A stretch of DNA of 63,990 nt, filler included, from Dirinaria sp. TL-2023a (Eukaryota), in NCBI GenBank assembly GCA_051941275.1. It is 7 parts of 7 records of this genome, joined end to end, with 100 filler letters (N's around TTAATTAATTAA, not from the genome) between each part and the next. Parts side by side here need not be neighbours in the genome. Positions count along the whole stretch, not along the records: positions 28,041 to 37,272 come from JAVEBF010001078.1; 6 more parts are not named here. The stretch is one strand, 5' to 3'. Shown here in pieces: positions 1,774 to 37,272 of the stretch. Under the pieces are notes generated by a model. The model had not been told where the DNA came from. It was given only the letters and a program-made list of their open reading frames with translations, and searched no databases. The translations under genes were made by a program, and so were the position numbers. Each line of letters starts with the position of its first letter. Within the stretch, counting starts at the first letter, position 1.

Positions 1774-3490
1774 ATGAGCTATTCCAGACAATTTGATACT
1801 ACGTATATACTAGGCAGAGAAGTATCGGGTTGCAAGCTTCTCTTCGAATAACGCATAGATCAACAGCACTTCCAAATCATGAAATATGCGGTAGATCAAA
1901 GCAATCCTGATCCCGCTCTCCAATTTCTAACTAGGGAACAGACCGCTTTGAGAATTCTCGAAATACGGCGCCGAGGATGCAGATCTGCACTCGAATCTTT
2001 GTACGCGTCGTCTGAAACGCCGGAGCAGCCGTGCATATCGAGCGTTGGTGGTAAATCTGGTGTTCGAGGCAGACCAAGCTTGTTCGAAATGCTAAGGTGG
2101 TTACAGCAGCTTGGTCATACTGTAACGATGTACTGCAATGCATCACTCGAACATAAACTAACTGATCAGTAGACTGCTGATATTAATCGTCTCAACATCA
2201 TACACATAGCGGGGACCAAAGGAAAGGGCGGTACTTGTGCATATATCGAATGTCTCTTGAGAACACATGAACAAAGAATCGGTTTTTCGACGAAAACTGA
2301 GCTTTACACTTTCTCGCATCTCATCGATATCGAGAAAAGAATTCGAATAAACTTTCGACCTTTGGAAAAGGAGGTTTTTGCAAGATACGTGCTGGAAACT
2401 CATGAAGTCTTGCAATCCTTTTTCAGAGATTCTCAGAACGCACCTCGCTATCTTCAATTTCTTGCATTGGTGTCGTTTCACGCATTTATTAAAGAAGGAG
2501 TAGACGTGGCGATATATGAAACTCATCAAGATGATGAATTTGATGCAACGAACGTCACACCGAAGTTCGTTGTGACAGCGATCACCTCAATTGACGAAGA
2601 TCATATGCATCAACTCGATTCATCTCTCGAAAACGTTGCTTGGCATAAGACAGGAATCTTCAAAACTGGTTCTCCTGCGTTCTCAGCCCCGCAGCAGAGT
2701 GCAGTAGCTGCGGTGCTTCAAAGTCGAGCAGTTGAAAGAGGAGTATCGCTAGAATTCGTCGAGGTGTGCAAAGATCTCATAGTTGACGCTTCACAATTGA
2801 AGCCGGAGACTAGACAACTGAATTTTTCCTTGACTCGTGCCGTCAGCAACAGTTTTTTGCGACAGAGAGCGGCACAAGACAATGCTGTGCTTTCATTGCA
2901 CGACATAGTTCGGGGAGCACAAACAGCTTCTTGGTCAGAACGTTTTCAATCAATTTTGAATGATAATCTCACGTGGTTGCTGAACGGAGCACATAACAGA
3001 ATCAGTCTCGAAGTATGTGCACAATGATTCGCTCAATCCTGTCTTGAAACGAAGCAGAATTCAAAAGACTCGCAAGTCTGTCAAGTTCTCATTTTCAGTC
3101 ACTATTTCAGTCATCGAGATCAAGTCGCACTTCTAGAGTGCCTAGCTTGTGCTCTTCTAAAACACCGCGTATCAATTCAACACGCTATTTTTACGATAGA
3201 TCAATACACGGGAAATGCAAGCAACGGTTCGCGACTTTCACTATCGAGAGAAACAATACTAATAAGTTATAGATGCGCAGTTTCACCTTCTTGAACAGTA
3301 CAAGAAACCGTGGGAGAAGATCTATCCCAGATCCAGAGTATATAATATACGCAGTGTTGAGACCGCTTTGACCCTGGCAAAAGAGATTGGAATCAAGGAA
3401 GGTATCACGCATGTTTTGATAACTAAAAGTTTACACGTGATTGGTGAGGCTCTTCGCATTCTAACTTCTTCAGTGCAGAACGACCCCTGA
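1774..3490 (+). pseudogene. Folylpolyglutamate synthase (FPGS/FolC family) paralog, hypermutated
   Basis: P-loop HIAGTKGKGGTC near 2203; degenerate FPGS motifs ELYTFSHL (GLYTSPHL), VDVAIYETHQDDEFDATNV (..GGEYDATN), LNGAHN (LDGAH), HVLITKSLHVIG (LVTGSLHLVG); premature TGA at 3025; terminal TGA at 3488-3490; introns present; start approximate. Confidence 0.85.
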
Positions 3491-4080
3491 GTCACGATGA
3501 GAAAGGATGAATTTGGGAATTTATAAAGGACTAAATTTCGGGATTGCGTATCGAAGCTGCGATGATCCATATAGTCCAAGCTACTGTACTTTAAAAACGA
3601 CTAACTCAACGATAGCTCGGATGATTAGTAAACTCTCGGCCCTCAACGTTTTCCTCGTGACCCTCGCACTAGTCCTAGCTCAGTAAAGCGGACCCCATCT
3701 CAATGTTCTCTAGAACCACACGACGTTTAGCCCATATCTGTAGACGGTTCAGATTCGCTTTTCATCTCAGCACCGGCGTCCGTTGTCAATCTGTTATCGA
3801 CATCAATGTTCAGGACATTCATGAAGCCTTGTTAATCACGTCGGAAGAATTACATTGCTCTGCGACTTCTCATCGACACAATTTACACATACGCCTCTCA
3901 TCACCGCAGCTGCCTAGAAGACCCTCCTCGTCGGTATTCTGCGCACAGCAGCATCGACGAGACCTTGGTCTGAACTCGACCGTATAGAGTGGCGGAGCAC
4001 AAAATTTAAAGACTTGAGACTCATGTCTCAAGAGAGCCAAATTACATCAGTTGATGACATTGCACATGATGATCAAAAGC

Positions 4081-5332
4081 TCAAGAAGAAAGCCACACAA
4101 TTAGTAGAATCTTAAGACTTGCAGCGATCCTTCGTTCGCTAATACAGTGTAGTCTGGCGAAGATGTCGTCCGAGATCTCACGGAGACGAGTGGAAAAGAT
4201 TTTGAAACGATAAATTCTACAGTTTGTGTTATGCTTGTAAAGAAACATGGCATCAGAGAAGTCGTCAGAATTTTCAGCGATCCTGTAACGAATGTAGTAA
4301 CAGGTCCGACACAAAGAACTGAATTCGTTATTGTCGTTAAAAAGTCTGATGAGAATTGCAGATTGCTTGGGAACCCTTCACTTCGATATTTCCGACGCAG
4401 ACCTTGAGTCGATAACATATTTGACCAAGACCTCGCCCAATCCAAGAGAACTCGATTTTCCTCTTCAGTCTCAAAGACGACTCCAATTTAATATAGATGA
4501 ATGGAGATGATATCTCAGAAAATGAACAGGTCATCTGCAAGGTTGGACAGCTGACTTCGTATTGATGGAGAAAATTGAGAAGATCTGTGATCTTGAGGTC
4601 TAACTCAAAACTGTCTCTTTGCGATAAAGCTTGCTCTGCTTCAGAGTCATACTTATTCAGGGGTTGATATGTGATCTGAGTAGAGAACTTCGCCTTGTGT
4701 GAAGATTCTTCTTGATATCCTTGAGCAAGTCCCAATAAATTGTTCTCAGACAGACCCGTATGCTTGCTTTGCAGTGAATGCTGTTCTAAAGTGACTCCGT
4801 AATCAGGGTTGTTGAGGACGAAGAAGCTTGATATACCAGCATCAACAGCAATCTCGAAACGCTGGCGTTTCCGATTCGAATTGCTCTCAGACAGACCCGC
4901 ATGCTTCCTTTACGATGAATGACGTTTTCGATTCGAAGTCATCAAAGAACTGATTGAATTGACCTTGCAAAGTTCTCTGCTTGTTTCCGTCAAGCCTGCT
5001 GAATGCGAGGTCGTTTTCCACCATTTTCTGAGTTTCGGAATGAGGGATTTTGACGATACGCTGCTCAATTTCGAGATGGATGTACACAAAGTGCACAACA
5101 GAAATATCTCTTGCTCTACACCAAAGAAGACGTCGCTTAAGAGTGTACGTGCTCGATCTCTTGCGAAGCGGCGTGTTCTCGATAGTTCTACTGTGTACGT
5201 CTCCTTTTTCTCGAATAACTCGCAGCACAACTCAAATGAATCCTTCTAGTGTTTGAGCAACGGATAAGCGTGATCATCGAAACTTACTCTCACGGGTTTC
5301 AGCAGCTCAATGAATCATCCAATCCATGGCAT
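4081..5332 (-). pseudogene. Decayed multi-exon hypothetical gene
   Basis: ATG at 5332 (MPWIG*FIELLKPVR) splices in frame via GTAAGT..TAG to KDSFELCCELF...RARTLLSDVFFGVEQEIFLLCTLC; further broken frames at 4337-4735 and 4081-4314; 3' end uncertain. Confidence 0.45.
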
Positions 5333-5375
5333 GATGAAAGAGTCAGTGAAAAGCTATGAATGATCTTTGAAAAAG

Positions 5376-5426
5376 AGCGAGTCAGAGCGAGTCAGAGCGG
5401 GACAGAGCGGGACAGCAGAGACAGAA
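5376..5426. repeat. Short 10-bp tandem repeat (GAGCGAGTCA/GAGCGGGACA)
   Basis: Four near-identical 10-mers read directly from the sequence. Confidence 0.7.
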
Positions 5427-6164
5427 CAGTGTGTCGAGCCAATGATATGTATTTAAGAGTGACAAAAATGTATCCTATTGCATTAGAGATGTAGGAGTGT
5501 GGGACTAATGTACGCCATCGAGTCAAAGTCGGATGATGAAGAATTCTGACTAAGCGAGTTGCAGCGATACCGCGAATACTGATCGTATTCAGAAGTCAAG
5601 AACATTATGCAAAGATATCGTCGTGGAGTTCAGTTATATTCTTTCTTCGATTCGTCGTGTCATATCACATCATCTGTCAATCATCCACCTCACGCTCGAT
5701 TAATTTCTCAAGATGTGGTTTCCCGTAGAACTTTCGAATGCTCGAATGTTGACCGTACTCTTCAGAAGATGGGAATTGAGATTTGCATGTGCTTGATTGA
5801 CATGAGTTGACTCCATAGGTCGCTTGATTACAAGTTGAATATTCGATGTCAATATGCCCGCAACTTTACTTAACACCTATCTGGTTCTCTCTGCCTTCTC
5901 TCGTCCTCCTAGCACTCGGATACCCTAGACAATCTCAAGGAGAGTAGATGTGATATGATGAACCACACTTAAGAGAAAATAATTCATCTAAGGGAAAGCC
6001 TATTCTGTCCCATTTCAAAAATCGGCATCACTCCCAGATCCCAGCTCAGGTTCAGCCAGAGCTCTGCTCACTTAGAATATCGTAATTAGCCCCGAACTAT
6101 TATTGATATATCATGTTTCAGTTGCCAGTTTGACTTACCGCAATAGTCATTTCAACAGACTTAT

Positions 6165-6392
6165 CTATTGGGAGCTCTGAGAGCTCGGAGAAGTTTTGCC
6201 CGAGCAAGCTGAACACAAACCAGGCAGATTTTGATCTCGTGCATCAAGAGCCCGTGGCACATCTCGAATTGACCCACTCGCAGAGAGACAGAGTTTCCGA
6301 TCAGAACGTGCAGAAGCTGTTGCACATCTAGAATAATCGTAGACAAATATATGGTTACACTGTGCGTAGTGATGAGAGTTTTGCTCGCACAT
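6165..6392 (-). CDS. Small Cys/His-rich protein (75 aa)
   Basis: ATG start; pattern MC..Y..C.H....C....C...CxxC typical of small fungal zinc-binding-like proteins. Confidence 0.45.
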   Translation of the reverse strand: MCEQNSHHYAQCNHIFVYDYSRCATASARSDRKLCLSASGSIRDVPRALDARDQNLPGLCSACSGKTSPSSQSSQ

Positions 6393-7203
6393 TTTCTAAA
6401 GATTTTTAGCAACCCGAACGCAGGTAAGAGGGTAGATGTGTCTTAAGATACGACGGAGCGTCTCTTCTTCAAATTCAATTGAGGGTAGAAAAACTCGAGA
6501 CGAAAAGGTCCGAGATAGCGCGATGTCTTGAGACATTGTAGATTTAGAGACCCGCTCTTCGTACCCGTGGGTTTGCTTACGTACTCGCCAAGCCGGAAAT
6601 TTGTTAGGGCTGTTGCAGGGTTATTAGTAAGCACCCACAAATGGAAAATTTCCAATATCCACATACCTTATATTCTGCGTCTACTACTACATTGCTTCAT
6701 CCTCATGAAACGATCGCCTGCTTCGTTTATTGCCGAGAACAATCTTCTGTCTTCATCAATCATTGTGATTAGGGTTAGAGTTACACCTAAGATGATGATG
6801 ATGTGGGAAATGCTGATGTGAGTAACCTTGGCGAGCCTCGAACTCTGCGACAACTCTAAAAGTTTTTCCGGCTTGGTGTTATGGACCAAATGGTGGGCCA
6901 AATCTAATGATATTACCTATAAGGTAGATAGTCAAAATAGCTAATAATAATGGAGATGCCCTGGGAAATCTGGGTGCAATCGCCTGCTAAATAGACCATA
7001 CCTGCCCCAGGGGTTTGCGCCATAGGCCCGGAAGCATCTGAAACCGGCATTGGTGCGGAAATGCGCCAAGTGCATGGTGCAAAGCCATAGAAGTAAAAGA
7101 TAAAAGCTAGTACTAAAATGCTAGTCCCAGAAGCACAGGAAGAAGCATGTGAAAATCCATAACATATACTCTCATAACACATCGTTTATATAGTACTGAT
7201 AGT

Positions 7204-7490: not shown

Positions 7491-8972
7491 TTACCCCCCC
7501 CTCCAATAAGTAACGTCCCTGTTGCGGTTAAAATAAGATTACTCCGAAGTATTTTCTAGCCAATCAGAATTTTTTTAGAACCATTTACTGTAATCGAGAA
7601 ATCAGTACGTGATCTCAATGATGTTGATTGAGCTTCATGTTGCAATGAGGGCTTGACCGTGTGATGATTTTATGATGCTTCTTGGTGAAAATCCCCGCGA
7701 AATTGACCAGGCTTCACCCAAGTTTTTTAGTCATTATGCTTGTCTTGAGCTCTTGCGTTTGTTGACTTTGTTGTCGGTGTTTAGAGCCTTGTTATTTGCG
7801 CCGTCAGGCTTGTCAGGATATCGTGTGTGGAAGTCGTTAGTTATATTCTTTGTATGCTCAAACTCACTCTCATCAGTATGGTACCAAGTTCTATCGCGGT
7901 GCTTTCAATCAACTCATTGACACTGGTATTATAAGCGCTCATGATGCCATCTCGAGTTGACAACATCTGCAAGCTCCTATTCATCGCCTTCATCGGTTAC
8001 TATCTTGTCAGGAGGTTCTTGTATCTGACCTGATAAGAGGTCATCAGGATCTTTGCGAAGCAGGTTAGAATAGAATATATTATGTATTCTTATTGTGTCA
8101 GGTAGTTTTAGCTCATAGACAATACCATAACGTTTGACTATCGGGAAGGGTCCTAACATCTTGTCTTCTAGCTTCTTTGATGATCTATCGGTGTTAATGT
8201 TCTTACTGAATAGAAATACCTGATCGCCGACTTCATAGAAAATTTCTTTGCGGTGTTTATCAGCTTGATCCTTTATTGCTTGCTGAGAATTCTGCGCCGC
8301 GGAGCGCATAAATTCTAGAACATTTTGCATGTTATCAGCGATACTTTCAGTCTTTGCTGCCTGCATGCGATCGCGGGCAGTAGCATATTTGATATCGTTC
8401 GATGAAAAGATCATGCGCGGATGATATCCTTTGTTTGCAAAGAAGAGAGTCATATCTGTTGCTGTAGAAACGGCATTATTGTCTGCAAACTCCGCAATAG
8501 GTAGTAAATCAACTCAGTCGTCTTACATGTGATTGCAATATAGACGAAGCTGCTTTTTCACATCTTGATTTGCGCGTTTCGTTTGGTCATCAGTTTCAGG
8601 GAGAAAGGTAGTTGACAACTTGCATTTAATGCCTAGACGTTTACATAGTGACTTTCAAACGATAGTCACGAATTGAGATTCTCGATCTGATATTATTGAG
8701 TTTGAAAGACCGTGGGTGCGAAATACTCATTGAAGCAGTATCTCCGCTGTTGTCTCTGCAGTAGTGCCTTTCTTCAACGCCGTGCAAGATATATAATGTC
8801 TCTTCTTGATTAATTTATCGATGATGATGCAGATTGCATTTTTTTCTCTTGACATAGGAAGCTCGATAATGAAATTCATAGAGATATCTTGTTATCGTTG
8901 TTACGATACTGAGGCAGATACTAGTAAGTCATTATACTTATCCAAAGACGCTTTTAATCTTAGGCAATCATA
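7204..8972 (-). mobile_element. Ty3/Gypsy chromovirus LTR retrotransposon, 3' part (integrase, chromodomain, PPT, 3' LTR), inactivated
   Basis: Integrase core with stops (about 8454-8970), C-terminal KLEDKMLGPFPIV..YELKLP motif (ORF 7977-8453), degenerate chromodomain below 7977, polypurine tract GGAGGGGGGGG (minus strand) next to the LTR. Confidence 0.9.
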
Positions 8973-9271
8973 TATAAGGTCGTATGCGCCGGTTACCCGC
9001 CAGCGCAGTACTTGTGTGAAAGACGTGGCAGTGTAATAGATTATATGGCTACCTGATACTGTAGTTCCTGCTAGAACTAATCACTAAGGACTCCCCCCGA
9101 AAGGGTGAGTGATCCTCTATACTTAACCGCGAGCGTTAACATTGCCTCACCGTGACGAGCTCCGCGCTGACGGGTCACGAGCGCTCGTAGGCACAATGCC
9201 CTATAAGCGTCAATCGCTCACTGGCTCCTAGTTAGCCTCGGGATTCAACCTTCCGACGCTGGCTCCTAGAC
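8973..9271. mobile_element. Second element (probable LTR) inserted into the Gypsy integrase; truncated by contig end
   Basis: Integrase frame stops abruptly at the zinc-finger (YDCLRLK); the new sequence starts TATAAGG, consistent with a RIP-altered TGTAAGG LTR end. Confidence 0.5.
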
Positions 9272-28040: not shown

Positions 28041-28142
28041 TATATATATATATATAGTTTCCCCGAACCCAGGCCAACACGTGACCGCTGGCTGACTCAG
28101 GCCTCGCCGCTTTGCTCGCGCGCTAAGGCCCGTTTCGTCAAT

Positions 28143-28206
28143 ATGCTCCCTCGTTGCTCCCTCATGCTCCCTCATGCTCCCTCGATGCTCGCTCGTGCTC
28201 CCCCTC
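28143..28206. repeat. Six copies of a 10-11 bp repeat (ATGCTCCCTC) upstream of the captain
   Basis: Read directly from the sequence. Confidence 0.8.
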
Positions 28207-28546
28207 AGCCACTTCCTACTTTCTCGCCCTTCTTTCCGGCCGTTGCGTTCCTGCAACTTTAAACGAGAGCTTGTATTGGATGCTGGTCAAGAGGCTCCAT
28301 ATATGGCTTCACCCGCCGCCCACCATGGTACCCTCTCCTCTTGCCCTCTTACCCTCTTGTTCTTTTCTTTCCTTTCCTTTCAGTTCTATCTGCTTTGCGG
28401 TAACTCGTCAGGATACCAATTGTTCTGTTTTCCGAGTTCTCATCTTATATCTACTCTACATATAACCTGTTCTCCTCGCTCTATACGTCTTAATCGTCAC
28501 TTGTGCTTTGGGTTTTAAGTTCCTTCTCGCTTTCATCTTGTTTACA

Positions 28547-31500
28547 ATGGCGAAAAAGAAGAGAACTGCTGCGCAGTTCTTCGATGATGCGAAAACGCAT
28601 GACTTAGAGCCCTTGATAAAGACCGATCTGAACAGCGACAAGGTCTCCAAGCATCTTGAATCTGGCACCGAAATAAATTACAGCCGAATGTTAGTCCTTT
28701 GAGATGAGTCAGTCTTCATGTCTTTCCTTATCATCGCAAAATTTATTTTGAATCCTTGTTGACCGTGTCCTGTCTCGATAAAATAGATACGAGAGAAGAA
28801 ACCCTGAAGTCACACCGTACGATAGAAAGACGGCAAAACACTTTATAGAGGGTGTCGTCCGCGGCTGCTGTGCCGATAAGAAGGAATCGTCCATGTATAC
28901 TATGCTTCAGAAATGAACAGACTTCGGCGCTGATTGAAAACGTCGACCCGAGAACGACAAGATCTCTCCTGAAGTATCCGAATTCATCTACTTTGTTCGT
29001 GTCTCTATCTACTCTTGTCTCCATTTGCGAGGTCTAACGATCTCCCCAGTATATACAAATCGAGTTGCGGAAGAAATTCGGACTTTCGATCACTCGACGA
29101 ACCCGACACTTTATGACGATGAATCACTTCGTCATTGTCATCAAGCACATGTGAGCGAAGAACTGACATCAATACAGGCATGAACGGATCCTCGTCCAAG
29201 ATCACGCTGTCTATATGCTTTTCATCTATTCGTCGACGCGAGTGAGCGAGTATTTCGAATTCAATATGCGCAGAGACTCCGGTCGTGAATTGCTGTACGA
29301 GGTGAGTGGGTGAACTACAGAGCACTATCGATTAAGGACGAGTCTAGAGCTTCTACTTACATTTTGAACAGATCATTGACTTCGTCGTCTTCAAGAATGA
29401 AAAAGAAAAGGCAGAGATTGAGATGCGAGTCACACGGGACGCCAAAGGCTTTTCCGAGACGCCGCATAAAAGGTTGCTTCACTGTTTGACGCTTCGGGAT
29501 CGTGCTCACGAGCAACCTTTGCTGACTGTTCCGATGCAATTCTAGGCCACAGCATGGCATGTATGAGGATATGAAGCCGCTGTTTGCGAACCCGATACTG
29601 CCCTTGCTGGCAATCGCCTTGGCGGATCGTGCCTTCCAGAACTATGCGACTTTCGAAGAGATCGAAGAGATTCCCCCGCCTGCGGATGAGTCCTTACACC
29701 ACCTGCGAATCAAGAAGGACATGCTCCGTGTACCTTTCTTCCGAATAGTATCCATCGACGAACCCACGAGAAAGATTCAGGGAGCGGGCTCGTTCAGCAA
29801 TCGAACAGTGAATCTGAGTCATCGTGCCGAGTACGAGAAAAACATCGAGATACATGATATTCGAAGGAAAGCCCTCGTCAAGACTGATGATAAGTTCTCG
29901 AGAGGGACATCTCTGATGAGGCACGCTGACTCCGCTAAGATGACGAGTACTTCATTGCCGAGAGGATGAAATTCGCAGATCATAACAACGCAGATACCTT
30001 CTTCGACTCATACGCGTCGAAGCTGAGTACGATCGACGGTATGACAAGCTACTGAAATAAGAAACGTCGCACCGTTCATCTGAAAGGCTTTCGCGATCTA
30101 TCGCTCCATCATCATCCTCAGCTGCTGCAATCCCTTCTCGCGAAAGTGAAAGCGGACCTCGATAACTGTTCCGAGTTCATCTTCGTCAACAAGAAGATCG
30201 AAATGCTGAGAAAGAAACTCCGAGGCATCAAAACAGAAGATGAAGCCCAGCCCGCTCGGGCTCGACGAGAGGAATTGTATTGGCGGAAGCGCCAGCTCGT
30301 GGTCGAGGAGCTCAGCAAATGACAGCAGATTCAATCACGTAAGATTGCCTCAGACATCGTAGATGAAGCATCTCAAGTCGCGAGTCTCCCAAACTACTTC
30401 AACCGCATTCGCCGTTTCGATTCGCCGCGTGATCGATTGACATCTTCGCTCTTTCTCAACGCTTCTCTCCGCAGCGTGCAAGGCCGTAGCGCACTTCAGA
30501 ATATGATCACGTTATGTGAAGAGAACCCGCGGGTAGCTTATCGTCTAAGTTCGCGGCCGGAAAACGATCGTTGCCCGATACCTCAATGTGCACGGGATAT
30601 GAATCGGTTTGTCTACTTTTCCTTTCTAGTTTCCCACATCATTGATTGTTGATGCTTGACTGACTAAATATTCTTCGATTTTACAGAATCAATCTTGCTG
30701 ATAGGTGAGAACATATTTATCGTTGCCGTAAGAGCGACCTTGAAAGGAAACACGGCTTTGCCGAGCTTTGTTTTCAATGCGACGAGTGAATCACCGCTGC
30801 GGCCGAATGATTTGAGCACTGTCAACGTCACCTCAACGACCTCGACACACTCTCAGTTCAATGCAACCCACTTGTCTTCCGCCGAACCCTTGCTATCGCC
30901 GAGCAATGTCTGTTTTGTCTCTTCGATCTAAAACTCTCATCAACGAAACGTTTCCATCAGTTCTTGATCAAGCAAAGCTGAAGAGAGCATCTGCAGAAAC
31001 ATTTCTGGCAATTAGAAAACATGTACAGTCGATTCATAGAGACCGGTGAAAGCAAGGCAGTTTCATGTCCTGATCCGCGCTGTGCACTTTCGTTCGACTC
31101 GATTCAAGATCTTCAGTGTCACTGTCAGAATGTACACTGCATTGAGCGAGTCAAGCTCGACCCGATCAAAAGACGTCGCCGAACACCTCAGTCTTCGCTG
31201 AATGTGAAGACTTTATTCGGCGTGGGCATCAAGCTGAAATACCGTTGTGACCTCGTAAGAGAGAAAAGTCCTTTTAAGAATGTCAATAAATCTATGAATT
31301 CGTCAACGCTCGAGCCAATTGATGTTGATGTGATCGTTGCCACAGAATCAGTGAGACTGAACGAGAGAAACAGCGTCACTCGACGCTGCTCTCTTCCTTC
31401 AATCGACACGATAGCAAGCCAAGACAGACAAAATTCGTTCACAGCAACTTTCACACATTCGGAAACCTCGCTTTCGATGACTGATTGGACCTCGGACGAG

Positions 31501-31620
31501 GCCGCATATAATAAGCTGACGCCGACATCGTCAGTCTTCTTCGACCTTTCACTTTCAATCGACCCAAGACTCCTCGACGAATCCCATCAGTTGACTCCGG
31601 TTCCGCAGCCGAAGAGCTAG
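28547..31620 (+). pseudogene. Starship captain: DUF3435 tyrosine recombinase with C-terminal Cys/His zinc-finger-like region, multi-exon
   Basis: Spliced frame gives SSTRVSEY (catalytic R), HGMYED..PLFANPILPLLAIALADRAF, HDIRR (HxxR), FADH (FAGH-like), SYAS (Tyr), then CFQC..HCQRH, CLFC..H..H and CPDPRC..HCQNVH; 11 in-frame TGA and a GT>AT donor change at 29890. Confidence 0.85.
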
Positions 31621-32131
31621 CAATAAAAGGCTACTCCAGTTCTCTAAGTATCGTTGCGCGCTTGAAGTGCTTTGTAGGGTCCATGAAGAGCTGAATGAGA
31701 CTTGTAATATGAACTTGATCCTGATCAGATTGAACCAGATAGCAAATCGATCATGTTGCATTTGATGCATATTTTTCAATCTTCACTTCTACATAAAGAG
31801 TATGCTTTCTACAAAGCAAGTCGTTGCCTCAAATACTGTGCTCTTGGGCTATATAGCCTCAATTTAACTCCCAATGACAGCGATCCTTGACATGGATTGA
31901 AACAGTCCTCCAAATAATAAAGGGGCAGATATTGACCTCCGTGCCCCCGAGCCCCCGATTGAGGGCTCCAATTTTGGCTGCCTAAGAGAGGGTGCCAAAA
32001 CTGACGCTCTATGAGAGTGAAAAGCTTTTGAAGTCCCACTTGGCCTCTTTTCATCCCCGGATTCCTTACACTCTGAGATTGAGATTACTGAAACGATATT
32101 GGATGTTCATCATACGAAAGACTTGTCACAA

Positions 32132-32883
32132 AATGACTTCCCGTCGATCCAATAACGTGAAACGCACGAAATGAAGTAGAAAGTGCAGAGAGATACTATC
32201 AGCTCATATTTGTAAGAGCCATGATTCTAGTGATCAAGCTTTTGCTAACAAGAGCTAAGATAATAGACTGGGAATCGCGATTGAAGCCTCACAGATGCGG
32301 CTCAAAACTAATGCGAATGACCCTTATACGTGGGAAAGAATGAAAGAAAAAGAGCACCTGTTCTCCAAAAATCTAAGTGACCTTTCGTCTGACCAGCTTA
32401 AGGATTTGTGTGACGATGTCGATAAATCGTTCGTAGCCATTCATAAGGCCCCAGTCCAATCGCTACCTCAGACACAGAATAAGGAAGCATCTGTATACAC
32501 TAATCATCCTCCTCTATGCAACGTATAGCTGACTGCTCAATAAGTTTCTCGAACTTCCTAGATCGAAAGTTAGCTTTGCGGCAAAGATTGACGAACTCCA
32601 TCAAGACAACGTCAGATTAGCTCGCGATATTAGGAAATGGGAATGCGAGACTGCTATAGAATCGAAAAGAAGACAGAAAGCTGAATTGAAGGTCAGTCAG
32701 TTAAGAGTTATCATTCGGCAGCTCCACATGAATAACGAAAAACTCGAGAAGCACATAAGTGAGTGAAAATCAATAGCAGAGGAATCTAAGAGCAAGGCAG
32801 TCAAATACTGCAGAGAAATGAGCAAGGTTTTTGTAGTACTGAAGGAGATTAAGTGTGAGCTAGCTAGCACCTGCACCAAATAG
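32132..32883 (+). pseudogene. Coiled-coil cargo gene, decayed
   Basis: MTSRRSNNVKRTK*..., ORF 32295-32528, and a heptad-rich last exon KVSFAAKIDELHQDNVRLARDIRKWE...HISE*KSIAEES...CTK*; TGA stops. Confidence 0.5.
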
Positions 32884-33251
32884 CATCCCAGATAGCACCC
32901 GTTGTTACGCTGACAAATGTGAGCCAAGGAGATCTGTGTTTCCCATTAAAAGCTGCATTTCAGACGTATTATTTCCTGTAAGTCTTCTATAAGAATACGT
33001 TTTCGTGTTATTCTGAAAACTCTTCTCGTCTTTTGTTCAAAAATTTGCCGCCCAAATCTTATAAACAATCTAACGGCATTAAATGAGAGGTTGCGATGCT
33101 TAATCGATGATTATTTACAAGCAACGCAATTCTCTAATAAATACCTTCCGCTTCTCTTTTCGATGATGGTTACAATCATAATGATGACCGATTCTCTGAA
33201 CTTCTCCCTTGCTCAAATATGCATGCTACCCTCACTGCTTATGACTCCAGC

Positions 33252-33306
33252 TCCACTTGACTCATTCACTTCTGACTCATCCACTTCTGACTCATCCACT
33301 TCTGAC
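33252..33306. repeat. 15-bp tandem repeat (TCCACTTCTGACTCA); may encode SEVDE repeats of a decayed minus-strand gene
   Basis: About 3.5 copies read directly. Confidence 0.7.
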
Positions 33307-33896
33307 GTCCCTTCCCTACCATAGCTCACTATCTAATTTTGGATTCCCCAGCCATGTCAAAGTCTCAATCAGCTTTCTATCCCAGCATCTAAATCGATTA
33401 TGATGGACTTGCGACGATGATTTGCAACTACGGTTGGTGATTGAGCAAGGTCTGCAATCTATTAAGTCAAGCAAGCGGCAATACGTCTTATTGGAAAACG
33501 GTTTGATACTATCAACCTAAGGAGCCGTAATGACAGATAGTTCTAACATGAAAGTGTAAAGCGAAACGCGAGATACCGAACGAAAGACAGCGTTCGTCAG
33601 AAAATGTTGCTCCGAACGAGTGATGATAGTCACGAGATGTTGCTGTAAAGTAGAAATGAGTGTCACTTAAAGAAGTGTTTTAAGAGTGCTTTTAATGAGA
33701 GATATAGCCGCTTGATCCTCCATGTAATTTCTCTTGAACTAGATCGCTGCAAAAAAGATGTTATTGAGATCGATGTCGATTTTGATACGATTCTGAAATT
33801 GTCGAGACTTGGATATTGATGCTAAACTGAGATTAGTCTGTTTAGTTTGAGTCGACGACTAGATTTCCAAACCTTCTTCTAATTCGCATTTGTTTT

Positions 33897-36023
33897 TTAT
33901 GCAGTCACAGACGTTGCCGATTGTCGCTGATATTGCTGAATAGTCTGTTGAACCGCGCTGACAATCATTGCCTGAACTGCGGCGGACGAAATCATATCAG
34001 CCTGATTTGATTGAGCAACTCCTGACTGAGTCGTTTCTGATTGACTGATTCCTGACTGAGTGACTCCTTGAGTGACTGCTGGCTGGGTAACTGCTGATTG
34101 GGTGACTCCTTGGGTAACTCCTTGAGTGGCTCCTTGAGTGGCGCCTTGAGTGACCGCTGGTTGAGTAATGGCTGGCTGACCGACTACTGCTTGGGCGATA
34201 CCTGGTTGAGCAAACCCTGATTGAGCAATTCCTGATTGAAGGACTCCTGGTTGATCGACTGTAGTCTGAGCTGCTTTTGTCACTTTGAATTGATCGTTCT
34301 TAATCCGCTGCATCGCTTTCATTTCTTCATTCAAGAGTCCAGCTTCTGTCTGTGACATTATGAGAACTCTTCGTCCTTCGAACTTCATCATTTTGCGATA
34401 TGATAAATGATTTTGTAGATCTTGATCAACCCGTGCCTGACCAGCTAAGCGAATAAGATCACTACGCGACATGAGCGTGTCTTTCAATTCTTCCAGCCAC
34501 TCCACCATCATAGTAATCCGGGGATACTGCCCAGTCCCCGATGTTATGGCATCGTCGACCGACATAGCAATTCAACGCATGCTCTTGTATCGATGTTTAT
34601 GTTGAGTGATGAATTCTTTTGTCGATTTCTGAACGAAAGAAATATCCTCGAACTTTAAATCGCCACACAGTTGCGTCGACTTCCACACATGCAATCCTGA
34701 TTTCTTCTCGACTAGAAATTGAAAGTTCTTAAAGACTTGACGCTTGGATAGGATCGACTCGCCGTCCAAAGTCAGTTTGTTCATGGCCTCACTTATCGCT
34801 GTGTCGCCATTGGTCGCAGATTCTGCATTAGCAGTTGGATCTGCTGCATCCTTCATGTTCGTGTCCTCGCCATTGTCAGTATCATTCGCATTGCCAGTGT
34901 CAGATTCAACAGCAGCATCATTACCAGTGCTGAATTCAGTAGCAGCATCAATATCAGTGTCGAATTCAGTGCCAGCGCCAGAACTATTACCAGTATCATC
35001 AGCAGAACTAGATCCGGGTTCCTCGACTTCTGAAAGTCATGCAGACTCCTTAGTGATATCAGCATATTGCCAAGCCCACGTGTCAGACAAGCCACGGTCA
35101 TTGCAGAATTCCTGAGTTGCGACGCAGAGAGTCTGAAAGATGGCGGCCAGCTCCTTTTTTTGTTCAGGGTCGGTCGTGTCTTTATACGTCTTCCTCAGTG
35201 CTTGCGTGTTTTGATACTTGTCTTGAAGGTACTTCAGAGGAAATTTTCCGCGACCTGGATTGTAACCTTTCTCTTTATTGTGGGCTTCGATATCGCTATT
35301 CATCTTCTTTACAAAAGCGAGCGCTTTCTGATTGAAAGATTCAATTTGCAGTCGGCGGATGCTTTCTACGAAGGGCGTTGTATTCCAAAATCTTTTATGT
35401 GATTGCTTGAGCCTTTCTATTTCCTCCGATGTGTCAGTGGAAAGGTCGAATTTATCTCGAGCTTCATTTAAAACTGTTTTGTGATCAGTTTTCCTGTCTT
35501 TGATTAGAATTCTTTGCTTACTTGAGTGCGCCTTTGTGGCCTTTTCCTTCCAGTCTGAAGTCTGCTTATCGGGATGAGTCAGAAGAGCAAGTTGCCTATA
35601 GACTTGCGTCATTGCAGCTTTGTCCGCATGATGGAATTGTTCAAGCGCCTCGTCGAGGCCATCATCGATGATTCGATCGATTTCATAATGCTGTTGCTCG
35701 CGAAGCTGATTTTGACTCAAATCTTCGATGGGGCCGAGCGATTCAAGGGCGACTTTTCCCCCTTTGACAGATGACCTTGTTTGTCGTGTGATACCAGAGG
35801 GTTGACCGGACTCTTGGTTTGCGATACTGAAACTCCCACTTGCGGCATTGTTGAAGGTGCCACCTGCATTATTGTTGGCATTTCCGCTTGACGCATCATT
35901 CGTCGAACCCTGTGCATTACTGTTCGTGACCGCATTGCCGTTGGGGGTTCCGGCTGAGATACCCGATGTGCTTGGAAGGGTAGGGTACTGAACACTATCG
36001 TTGTTCGGGGGTGTTGAGCTCAT
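33897..36023 (-). pseudogene. J-domain (HPD) cargo protein with acidic linker and Gln-rich short repeats; two in-frame TGA
   Basis: ORFs 35037-36038, 34572-34856 and 33897-34565 are one frame; YRQLALLTHPDK, 48-nt GTAAGC..ACAG intron, then ILNEARD; C-terminal Q-[P/S/G]-x-x-(x) repeats. Confidence 0.75.
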
Positions 36024-37272
36024 GGTTAAGAAACTCAAAGAATAGAATCAACGACTGTAGATTTGCCCTGTAATCAGGTCAACTGATTTTAGCTGCGAAC
36101 GTGTTTCGAATCGAGTGATTTCTAGTGGCAAAATATACTGTTGGGCCGACGAAGCTTTGAATCTTTATCAGAATGAAGTTTAGAGAAACAAGGGAACACA
36201 AAGAGGATACTTATAGATAATGATAACAGTAAGCCAGCCAATTCATGCTCATATGGGCGCCAGCTTTTGGCTGGGTTATCGACGTGATTAATTCTGGCTG
36301 CATTTCGATTCAAAACGTGCTCCTCAGAAGTGCATCCATAATGGGCGCCTGGGGATCCAGAACGAGTGCTGAACTTATGTGATTAATAAGGAATACGTTT
36401 CTCCTCGATGTTTCTGTTCACTACACTGCGAACATGAAGAGAATAAAGCTTTTCACATTATTGATGCTGTGCATCGTTGCAAGATGAGTACTTCGACTCA
36501 GAGCGAACAAGCTAATAGCTTCTCTCAGTCGTGCGGACGAAATCCTAGAGACCATCAACATCGAAATCGATATATCATGAAACTCAACGAGCGTCAATGC
36601 TAGCGCACAAGCGTCGATCAACAGTGCAGAAACGTCTTCCAGCACAGACTTCAATGCTACTCCAGGAAGAGCTATGGCAGCAGTCGTATCAAGCAGATCT
36701 GACGGTCAAATTGAGCCCACATTTGCAATCACTCAATCATCAGAGGCGGGGCCATTTGTCGGGACCCAGATGAACTCTTCTATGCCCACAGACTCATCTT
36801 GGCCTGGCTACCGTGGTTTGACTGGCTCTGCTCCAACGGCAAGTCAGTCATCGGGTTTGAAGCAGTCAAACAGCAGTCTCTGAGCGATCGATAGCCTGAG
36901 ATCGACAGCGCAAGCCTCTTCTTCTCCATTCTCTGGAGAGGCGTCGACAAGAAAAGTATCGAAGGAAGACGTTGACTTGCTCATCGTCCTTGGCTGCGTC
37001 ATTGAAATATTTCTATAAATAGATCTTAGTGAAGATAGAACCCAGACAACACGGAAAAGATTCCAAGAGCCAACGTAACAATCAAGACTGAGATATAGAC
37101 GTCCGACACCCTGAAGCCTAGATATGGGATGCCGGTCAAGTGAAACCTGCAAGACGCAGATGTCTGCATGTGAGGTAAGCATGACATAAATAAAATGTGA
37201 CTGCGCCATCTAAGCCTGCATGAAATAGTGCGGCTGAGAGACATCGCCGGAACTGACTGCCAACTATGCGCT

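Follow-up and report, generated by a model that had tools for sequence, protein, structure and literature searches.

Repeat-induced point mutation, or RIP, is the textbook genome defence of fungi. Dependence of C>T change on the 3′ neighbour of the target cytosine is a property of DNA methyltransferases and of RID- and DIM-2-dependent RIP, whereas AID/APOBEC enzymes read 5′ neighbours; APOBEC3G (A3G), in particular, deaminates the 3′ C of CC (TGG>TAG), is guided by 5′ neighbours and, with single-stranded DNA as its substrate, changes one strand. To our knowledge, every index-based detector is built on the context preference of RIP, which is CpA and, for certain lineages, CpG or CpT. As far as the accessible parts of the relevant papers go, RIP-like mutation has been reported at CpG and TpCpG in Microbotryum, Tuber and Aspergillus and at CpT in Magnaporthe, Botrytis and Sclerotinia (PMC4352252, PMC2621366), and the CpA, CpT and CpG signatures have been tied to Dnmt1 subclasses (Amselem et al., 2015, PMC4352252). 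The accessible description of RIPCAL defines a CpC>TpC index as a formal possibility, with CpA, CpG and CpT cases and none that is CpC-dominant (PMC2621366), and a 2025 survey of 1,239 genomes, in its available portion, gives a CpA preference as common to RIP-like defences (PMC12543289). Lichen-genome papers, in the text available, report RIP by GC content or RIPper, without context analysis, and in the accessible part of one study the mobile elements called Starships are reported to be degraded by RIP and to move between lichen-associated fungi (10.1101/2025.11.25.690456). Here we describe a Starship-like element in a stretch of 63,990 nt from Dirinaria sp. TL-2023a (GenBank assembly GCA_051941275.1; hereafter the window), in which the captain gene, encoding a probable DUF3435-family tyrosine recombinase, and its cargo carry dense C>T mutation directed at CpC. 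In the literature accessible to us, no description of CpC-dominant hypermutation in fungi was found; C>T mutation of repeats is itself known, whereas a CpC target preference is not known to have been described for a fungal repeat-mutating defence.

The window consists of seven excerpts of about 9.2 kb each, joined by spacers of the form N44 + TTAATTAATTAA + N44, with the captain in excerpt 4 (28041-37272). Among named organisms, the genes studied have their nearest relatives in the lichen-forming ascomycetes Stereocaulon, Gyalolechia, Puttea, Squamulea and Psora, and the source is accordingly taken to be, in all likelihood, an ascomycete of lichen type. The captain is organised as follows:

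28547-31620, plus strand: captain pseudogene (probable DUF3435 tyrosine recombinase) of 7 exons; Trp codons read TGA in 11 cases and TGG in 3, and the frame ends in TAG

28547-28707, 28787-28994, 29050-29301, 29372-29472, 29546-29889, 29940-30606 and 30687-31620, plus strand: captain exons, 2667 nt in frame

29890-29895, plus strand: mutated splice donor of intron 5, reading ATAAGT, a G>A change following a G

A first-pass annotation of this DNA had read 11 in-frame stops in the captain, all of them TGA, with no TAA or TAG and with CAA/CAG codons kept. Our seven-exon model gives exactly the same coordinates (28700, 28914, 28935, 29152, 29164, 30053, 30320, 30706, 30787, 30808 and 30979); no in-frame TAA or TAG is present in it except the terminal TAG, and 3 TGG, 35 CAA/CAG and 21 CGA codons are kept. 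Eleven homologous proteins are 50-80% identical to the captain, and 5 of them carry PF11917 in a precomputed listing. By tblastn and in a MAFFT alignment with these homologues, all 11 TGA fall opposite Trp; across 14 related DNA copies, TGG occupies 132 of the 136 cells present at the same positions, the rest being 3 TAG and 1 TCG. Five of the six introns are bounded by GT..AG; the exception is intron 5, whose donor, noted at first pass as G/ATAAGT at 29890 (exon/intron), is GTAAGT in all 14 relatives, with G as the preceding base in 10 and A in 4. Losses of Gly and Pro from conserved motifs, also noted then, recur at conserved alignment columns, where 20 Gly are replaced by Asp, Glu, Ser or Arg and 11 Pro by Ser or Leu. 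The direction of these changes is fixed by distant homologues from Exophiala, Geoglossum and Glutinoglossum, which keep the Trp, Gly and Pro residues. The read-through frame matches DUF3435 with 21.6 bits, below the cutoff of 25.8, as expected after hypermutation, and short single exons of the captain gave no match in Pfam. The earlier observation on the captain region is thus confirmed.

Across 610 alignment columns, compared with the homologue majority and converted to minimal single-base changes, the captain differs at 123. These comprise 57 G>A changes (49 with G before), 26 C>T (23 with C after), 8 A>G, 3 T>C, 19 transversions and 10 multi-base changes. Could the captain nevertheless be functional, with TGA read as Trp through a code change, read-through or RNA editing? 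Its seven exons do form one open frame free of any other stop, and 11 of 11 TGA fall at Trp positions, but this explanation is hardly credible: 14 long open reading frames (ORFs) of the core excerpts hold 79 TGG and are uninterrupted by TGA, which instead directly follows 8 of them, so that TGA is not recoded; the replaced Gly and Pro residues and the destroyed donor all lie in GG/CC context; and non-coding DNA has the same dinucleotide shift.

The context of the changes was resolved at the DNA level from 16 related captain-region loci in metagenome contigs, 14 of which were aligned. With the ancestral state taken as the consensus of nine related copies at 80% agreement or more (1,714 sites), the window carries 252 lineage-specific changes, namely 136 C>T (both strands folded), 58 T>C and 58 transversions. 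A stricter polarisation required that the outgroup copy L010 agree with the consensus. C>T changes per site fall by 3′ neighbour as follows:

CpC: 75/207 (36%); stricter polarisation 56/151

CpT: 30/239 (13%); stricter polarisation 18/170

CpA: 16/227 (7%); stricter polarisation 12/176

CpG: 15/230 (6.5%); stricter polarisation 10/168

CpC is thus hit far more often than the other contexts (Fisher odds ratio 5.9, p=2.9e-19; stricter polarisation, p=1.3e-16), in agreement with the first-pass proposal that TGG>TGA represents C>T at CpC on the opposite strand, whatever the 5′ base. Indeed, the C>T rate varies little with the −1 base (A.184, C.118, G.156, T.188; range.118-.188) or the −2 base (.123-.188), whereas a C at +1 gives.358 and the other +1 bases give.073-.113. 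Within CpC the +2 base also matters, with 36/62 for CCA, 18/54 for CCG, 16/59 for CCT and 3/27 for CCC. CCA is the complement of TGG, which accounts for the conversion of 11 of the 14 captain Trp codons to TGA and of none to TAG. Each 400-bp bin is mutated on both strands, with plus-strand G>A about twice as frequent as C>T. Together, these observations support the CpC>TpC interpretation, and neither of the two outcomes named at first pass as contrary to it, homologues lacking Trp at the stops and C>T not enriched at CpC, is seen.

The same alignment identifies which cytosine of the pair is targeted, since among 142 CC pairs flanked by non-C bases, 53 have become TC, 6 CT and none TT. Ultraviolet damage in a sun-exposed lichen, which would yield C>T at dipyrimidines and could account for CC and CT both being raised, is accordingly an extremely improbable source, with 0 CC>TT among the 142 pairs and the 5′ C preferred by 53 to 6; furthermore, cytosines preceded by T are hit no more readily than those preceded by A or G, and the core excerpts are unaffected. 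A3G-like editing was also considered and is ruled out by the hits on the 5′ C of CC (53 vs 6), by the lack of any effect of the −1 and −2 bases and by the changes on both strands.

The mutated DNA is delimited within the window. Dinucleotide ratios (rho), symmetrised over strands, distinguish excerpts 1 and 4 from the core excerpts 5-7:

Excerpt 4: rho(CC) 0.72, rho(TC) 1.34, (TC+GA)/(CC+GG) 2.22

Excerpt 1: rho(CC) 0.77, rho(TC) 1.23, (TC+GA)/(CC+GG) 2.08

Excerpts 5-7: rho(CC) 0.94-0.98, rho(TC) about 1.14, (TC+GA)/(CC+GG) 1.07-1.13

The depletion of CC/GG (rho 0.72 vs 0.94-0.98) and the excess of TC/GA (rho 1.34 vs about 1.14) expected of excerpt 4 relative to core genes are therefore both present. 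In 400-bp windows, the (TC+GA)/(CC+GG) ratio of the core has a median of 1.13 and a 95th percentile of 1.68, and excerpts 1 and 4 mostly lie at 2-5. Within excerpt 4, two regions are separated by a boundary at about 28440:

28041-28440, plus strand: 5′ terminus of the Starship-like element, made up of a (TA)n junction, a terminal block that is conserved (CCCCGAACCCAGGCCAACACGTGAC) and subterminal repeats, which are short and of the GCTCCCTC type

28441-37272, both strands: hypermutated tract, CC/GG low and TC/GA high, ratio mostly 2-5, reaching the excerpt end

Hypermutation is mostly absent from the first 400 bp of the element, where CpC is hit at 4 of 44 sites, compared with 30 of 64 in 28441-29240. 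The unaffected excerpts encode, in standard-code ORFs with Pfam matches, an SNF5 protein, an mRNA-capping enzyme, a protein kinase, a P450, a p24/GOLD protein and an adenylate kinase, and the SNF5 (1-225 of 225) and mRNA-capping domains are matched at full length in core ORFs.

This signature is overlooked by the standard RIP indices, as the first-pass annotation had foreseen. With the classical thresholds (TpA/ApT > 0.89 and (CpA+TpG)/(ApC+GpT) < 1.03), 1 of 116 one-kb windows is flagged, and 0 of the 26 in which (TC+GA)/(CC+GG) is at least 2; the product, substrate and composite indices are all negative in affected windows. The dinucleotides of the window show no rise of TpA and no depletion of CpA or CpG, and the GC content of the affected DNA falls to about 0.46 only. 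A CpC process thus hardly lowers GC and does not raise TpA, so that index-based tools would miss it.

The signature extends beyond the captain to the cargo of the element and to excerpt 1, where the other two affected genes lie. The remaining affected features of the window, whose tract boundaries in excerpt 1 lie at about 6400 and 7600, are:

33900-36023, minus strand: cargo gene with 2 in-frame TGA (35037-35039 and 34572-34574) and a Gln/Pro/Gly-rich C-terminal repeat

1801-6400, strand not assigned: second hypermutated tract, excerpt 1, ratio 1.8-4.3, rho(CC) 0.54-0.67 in 1-kb windows over 2001-6000

2173-3342, plus strand: folylpolyglutamate-synthase (FPGS)-like pseudogene, excerpt 1, with a TGA at a Trp codon (3025-3027)

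7601-9271, strand not assigned: third hypermutated tract, excerpt 1, by composition; it holds the integrase fragment

7980-8891, minus strand: Ty3/gypsy-type integrase fragment, excerpt 1, with Pfam rve and SH3_Tf2-1 matches, 3 TGA and 1 TAA

9772-10900, strand not assigned: possible fourth tract, excerpt 2, by composition only, ratio up to 5.0, with no recognisable gene

The case for the fourth tract is weak, as its DNA is AT-rich and partly low-complexity. Between the two affected tracts of excerpt 1, the segment 6500-7500 has normal CC and TC (ratio 0.7-1.1) and no Pfam match; this segment may represent unique sequence flanked by a pair of repeats.

Past about 34.5 kb, the cargo region was compared with relatives at the protein level only. 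Both TGA of the cargo gene align to Trp in 10 of 10 homologues (P0132-P0141; 57-86% identical, from lichen-derived data, one of them annotated as 'Glutamine-rich protein 2' of Puttea exsequens), and 137 of 647 columns differ, with 39 G>A changes (29 after G) and 29 C>T (27 before C); a Pfam DnaJ (J-domain) match is weak, at 18.8 bits against a cutoff of 27.8. In the FPGS-like pseudogene, the TGA at 3025-3027 corresponds to Trp in 13 of 13 homologues, a second TGA lies outside the compared columns, and 65 of 311 columns differ, with 20 G>A (16 after G) and 14 C>T (9 before C). The integrase fragment differs at 42 of 161 columns, with 20 G>A (11 after G and four after T) and 9 C>T (7 before C); two of its TGA align to Trp, and its TAA (8523-8525, minus strand) derives from a Gln CAA codon. 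The first-pass statement that the cargo genes and the excerpt 1 island also break at TGA therefore holds for the cargo gene and the FPGS-like pseudogene, both with two TGA, and for the TGA of the integrase, while the TAA of the integrase means that an all-TGA rule is not strictly true outside the captain. In this fragment, the CpC type is therefore accompanied by some change of the CpA type or by ordinary decay; codon inference is noisy here because the homologues, from a search of representative sequences, are about 50% identical or less. Pooled over the four genes at the protein level, there are 136 G>A changes (105 after G) and 78 C>T (66 before C), together 214, versus 41 A>G and T>C (32 and 9), along with 73 transversions and 39 multi-base changes.

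The paralogues among which the FPGS-like pseudogene falls occur chiefly in lichen fungi and are 64-74% identical to it where they align, and the housekeeping folylpolyglutamate synthases form a separate group that is 42-50% identical to it. The pseudogene may be the cargo of another mobile element.

The density of the changes bears on their tempo. The CpC mutations might be real and yet not duplication-triggered RIP, arising instead by slow deamination of 5-methylcytosine that a DIM-2-type enzyme with a CpC bias had placed in heterochromatin, or through an independent cytosine deaminase that attacks mobile DNA. The context, the strand symmetry and the tract limits would fit any enzyme that reads the 3′ neighbour on silenced DNA, no duplicate of the tracts is found within the window, and the sparing of the terminal 400 bp of the element could equally be explained by a chromatin domain. 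Slow decay is in poorer agreement with the fraction of CpC sites hit, about a third, alongside moderate numbers of reverse transitions and transversions, which is burst-like, with the frames free of indels and of other stops, and with the burst-like classical RIP carried by sister copies elsewhere; a separate deaminase would be expected to show the −1/−2 dependence of AID/APOBEC-type enzymes, which is not seen. We consider such non-RIP origins unlikely, but they are the most serious of the alternatives.

A different concern is that the true sequence is intact and the changes are systematic errors, made in base calling or in the consensus where cytosines of repeat DNA are methylated, which would suit changes that are context-specific and confined to probable heterochromatin. 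Methylation errors usually follow a motif-wide pattern, however, and here only about a third of CpC has changed and CCC is almost untouched; small CpC-rich C>T clusters also occur in related public assemblies (L003, 11/22; L002, 17/59). Two public runs, X1 and X2, contain only 5% of the sampled words and cover part of excerpt 4; one of the two is labelled lichen metagenome. X1 partly reads the A of the window at mutated sites (at 30981, other letters make up 12.8 of a depth of 22.9), although X1 may be the source of the window itself, which makes this argument a weak one. On balance, an artefact of this kind is very unlikely. Many contigs in both runs are 80-99% alike at the same places, with 1274 transitions versus 115 transversions in X1. 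Where the window has A/T and the run G/C, 17 of 20 differences lie in GpA/TpC context among the 40 difference rows listed of 2,234, a sample too small and too selected for a mutation spectrum to be drawn from it.

The element itself is defined by its 5′ end. Ten related loci (among L001-L012) have a common terminus at a (TA)n or TATATAG junction, TATATAG followed by 3 bases and CCCCGAACCCAGGCCAACACGTGAC, and unrelated DNA upstream of it. This points to a target resembling (TA)n and to insertion at 7 or more separate sites. The captain is the first gene at this defined terminus, with its start codon about 500 bp into the element. The copy number of the GCTCCCTC-type subterminal repeats differs among related copies.

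Sister copies of the element in other assemblies, analysed by the same procedure, carry a different signature. In L013, C>T is concentrated at CpA (59/219, against 9/201, 4/195 and 6/214 in the other contexts), and in L001, CpA is hit at 34 of 249 sites compared with 6-7 per about 240 sites elsewhere. Further downstream in L001, the figure at CpA is 64/73, and its 5001-7000 flank has a GC content of 0.33-0.40 and a TpA/ApT of 1.4-1.85. The method thus finds classical CpA-type RIP in relatives, which serves as an internal control. The three TAG cells at captain Trp codons that are TGA in the window come from L001 and L013, so that one element family carries both TGG>TAG and TGG>TGA. Copy-specific C>T clusters in L002 (5500-7000, CpC share 17/59) and L003 (6000-6500, 11/22), where about 22% of C sites are CpC, weakly hint at the CpC type in other lichen-derived assemblies and are too small to make a second case.

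The finding of more than one type of signature among relatives from other assemblies might also be explained if the window copy had acquired its signature in a previous host and been imported with the horizontally moving element, in which case it would be silent on the machinery of this genome. Movement of Starships between lichen-associated fungi is on record, in the accessible part of the report (10.1101/2025.11.25.690456). The FPGS-like pseudogene and the Ty3-type fragment on another excerpt, and possibly a third excerpt, would all need to have been imported as well, and we regard this history as quite improbable.

C>T direction, CpC context, action on both strands, confinement to tracts with core genes spared and the contrast with CpA-type sister copies are the observations that a mechanism has to explain. 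We think that the probable agent is a RIP-like, DNMT-type cytosine mutator with CpC specificity, for which enzyme and repeat dependence are surmised. A strong 3′-neighbour rule is typical of cytosine methyltransferase-type enzymes, and a RID- or DIM-2-class enzyme is proposed on this ground. Such an enzyme (RID/Masc1- or DIM-2-class) would act during the sexual cycle on the cytosines of duplicated DNA, deaminating them either outright or once it has methylated them, with a 3′-neighbour preference that in this lineage would be CpC rather than CpA. Its target would be the 5′ C of CpC, with CCA hottest, CCG and CCT next and CCC cold. A rule of this kind would spare Gln and Arg codons, turn Trp into TGA and a G/GT donor into G/AT, and convert Gly (GGN) to Asp, Glu, Ser or Arg and Pro (CCN) to Ser or Leu. 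A burst of such cytosine-to-thymine hypermutation on both strands would have made pseudogenes of the captain, the cargo gene and at least two other degenerate genes. We infer the duplication trigger from the multi-copy state of the family in X1 and X2, from its insertion sites in the metagenome contigs, at least 7 in number, and from the sparing of single-copy genes; the timing and the enzyme are proposed.

Several points weigh against this proposal. No repeats shared between the seven excerpts were found, and the repeat status of the tracts, the presence of RID or DIM-2 and the generality of the process across repeat families in this genome are presumed; among the ORFs of the window, a general Pfam scan returned no RID/Masc1- or DIM-2-class gene. 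CpT is also raised, about two-fold, and the signature of the integrase is less pure, with 11 of 20 G>A changes after G and one TAA from CAA. Because Starships move horizontally, the mutations may also have arisen in a previous host, before a transfer of the element, and a methylation-linked base-calling artefact is a further, very unlikely source. Finally, lichen-fungus genomes are reported, in the accessible parts of two papers, to have ordinary AT-rich RIP regions (10.1101/2025.11.25.690456, PMC12542154).

If the CpC mutator is of the RIP type, a broader reading suggests itself, in which a lichen-forming ascomycete lineage has re-targeted its repeat-mutating defence from CpA to CpC. The hot spot, CCA, would place the target one base upstream of the canonical target C, and the same Starship family would record both specificities in different hosts, as TGA here and as TAG in L001 and L013. 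We advance this tentatively, as quite conceivable though short of probable. Were it true, surveys that score RIP by TpA or by AT-richness would consistently underestimate this defence in such fungi, and comparison of the RID/DIM-2 target-recognition regions of these hosts could reveal the basis of the dinucleotide choice of RIP. More generally, a CpC process would alter the estimated prevalence of such defences among lichen fungi, and its footprint is distinctive and easily scored, through Trp>TGA, Gly>Asp/Glu and Pro>Ser/Leu. The CpA-type sister copies of the same element constitute a natural experiment on the target choice of RID/DIM-2-type enzymes, and the element in the window documents the disarming of Starships in lichen symbionts.

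Compared with known systems, the captain resembles A3G targets in its G>A changes in GG context and in the conversion of Trp codons to stops, and differs from them in that hits fall on the 5′ C of the pair (53 vs 6), the −1 base is irrelevant and both strands are changed. The element resembles the Starships of lichen-forming fungi (e.g., Tangerine) in having, about 500 bp in from its 5′ end, a probable DUF3435-family captain with cargo behind it, and in the presence of its family at different sites in several lichen-derived assemblies; it differs in its decay by the CpC type, and it is known from its 5′ part, the 3′ end and full cargo lying outside the excerpt. With the species-specific RIP-like signatures it has in common that the dinucleotide preference of C>T differs among fungal lineages. 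The closest likeness in kind is to the canonical, RID- and DIM-2-dependent RIP of Neurospora crassa, with which the window has in common C:G>T:A change on both strands, 3′-neighbour dependence, nonsense codons in bulk and dense tracts limited to mobile or presumably duplicated DNA, and which sister copies of the element carry in its canonical form. The window departs from canonical RIP in its target, which is CpC (CCA) with CpA hit at only 7%, in the conversion of Trp to TGA rather than TAG with Gln spared, and in the lack of a TpA excess, such that 0 of 26 affected windows pass the CpA-type indices.

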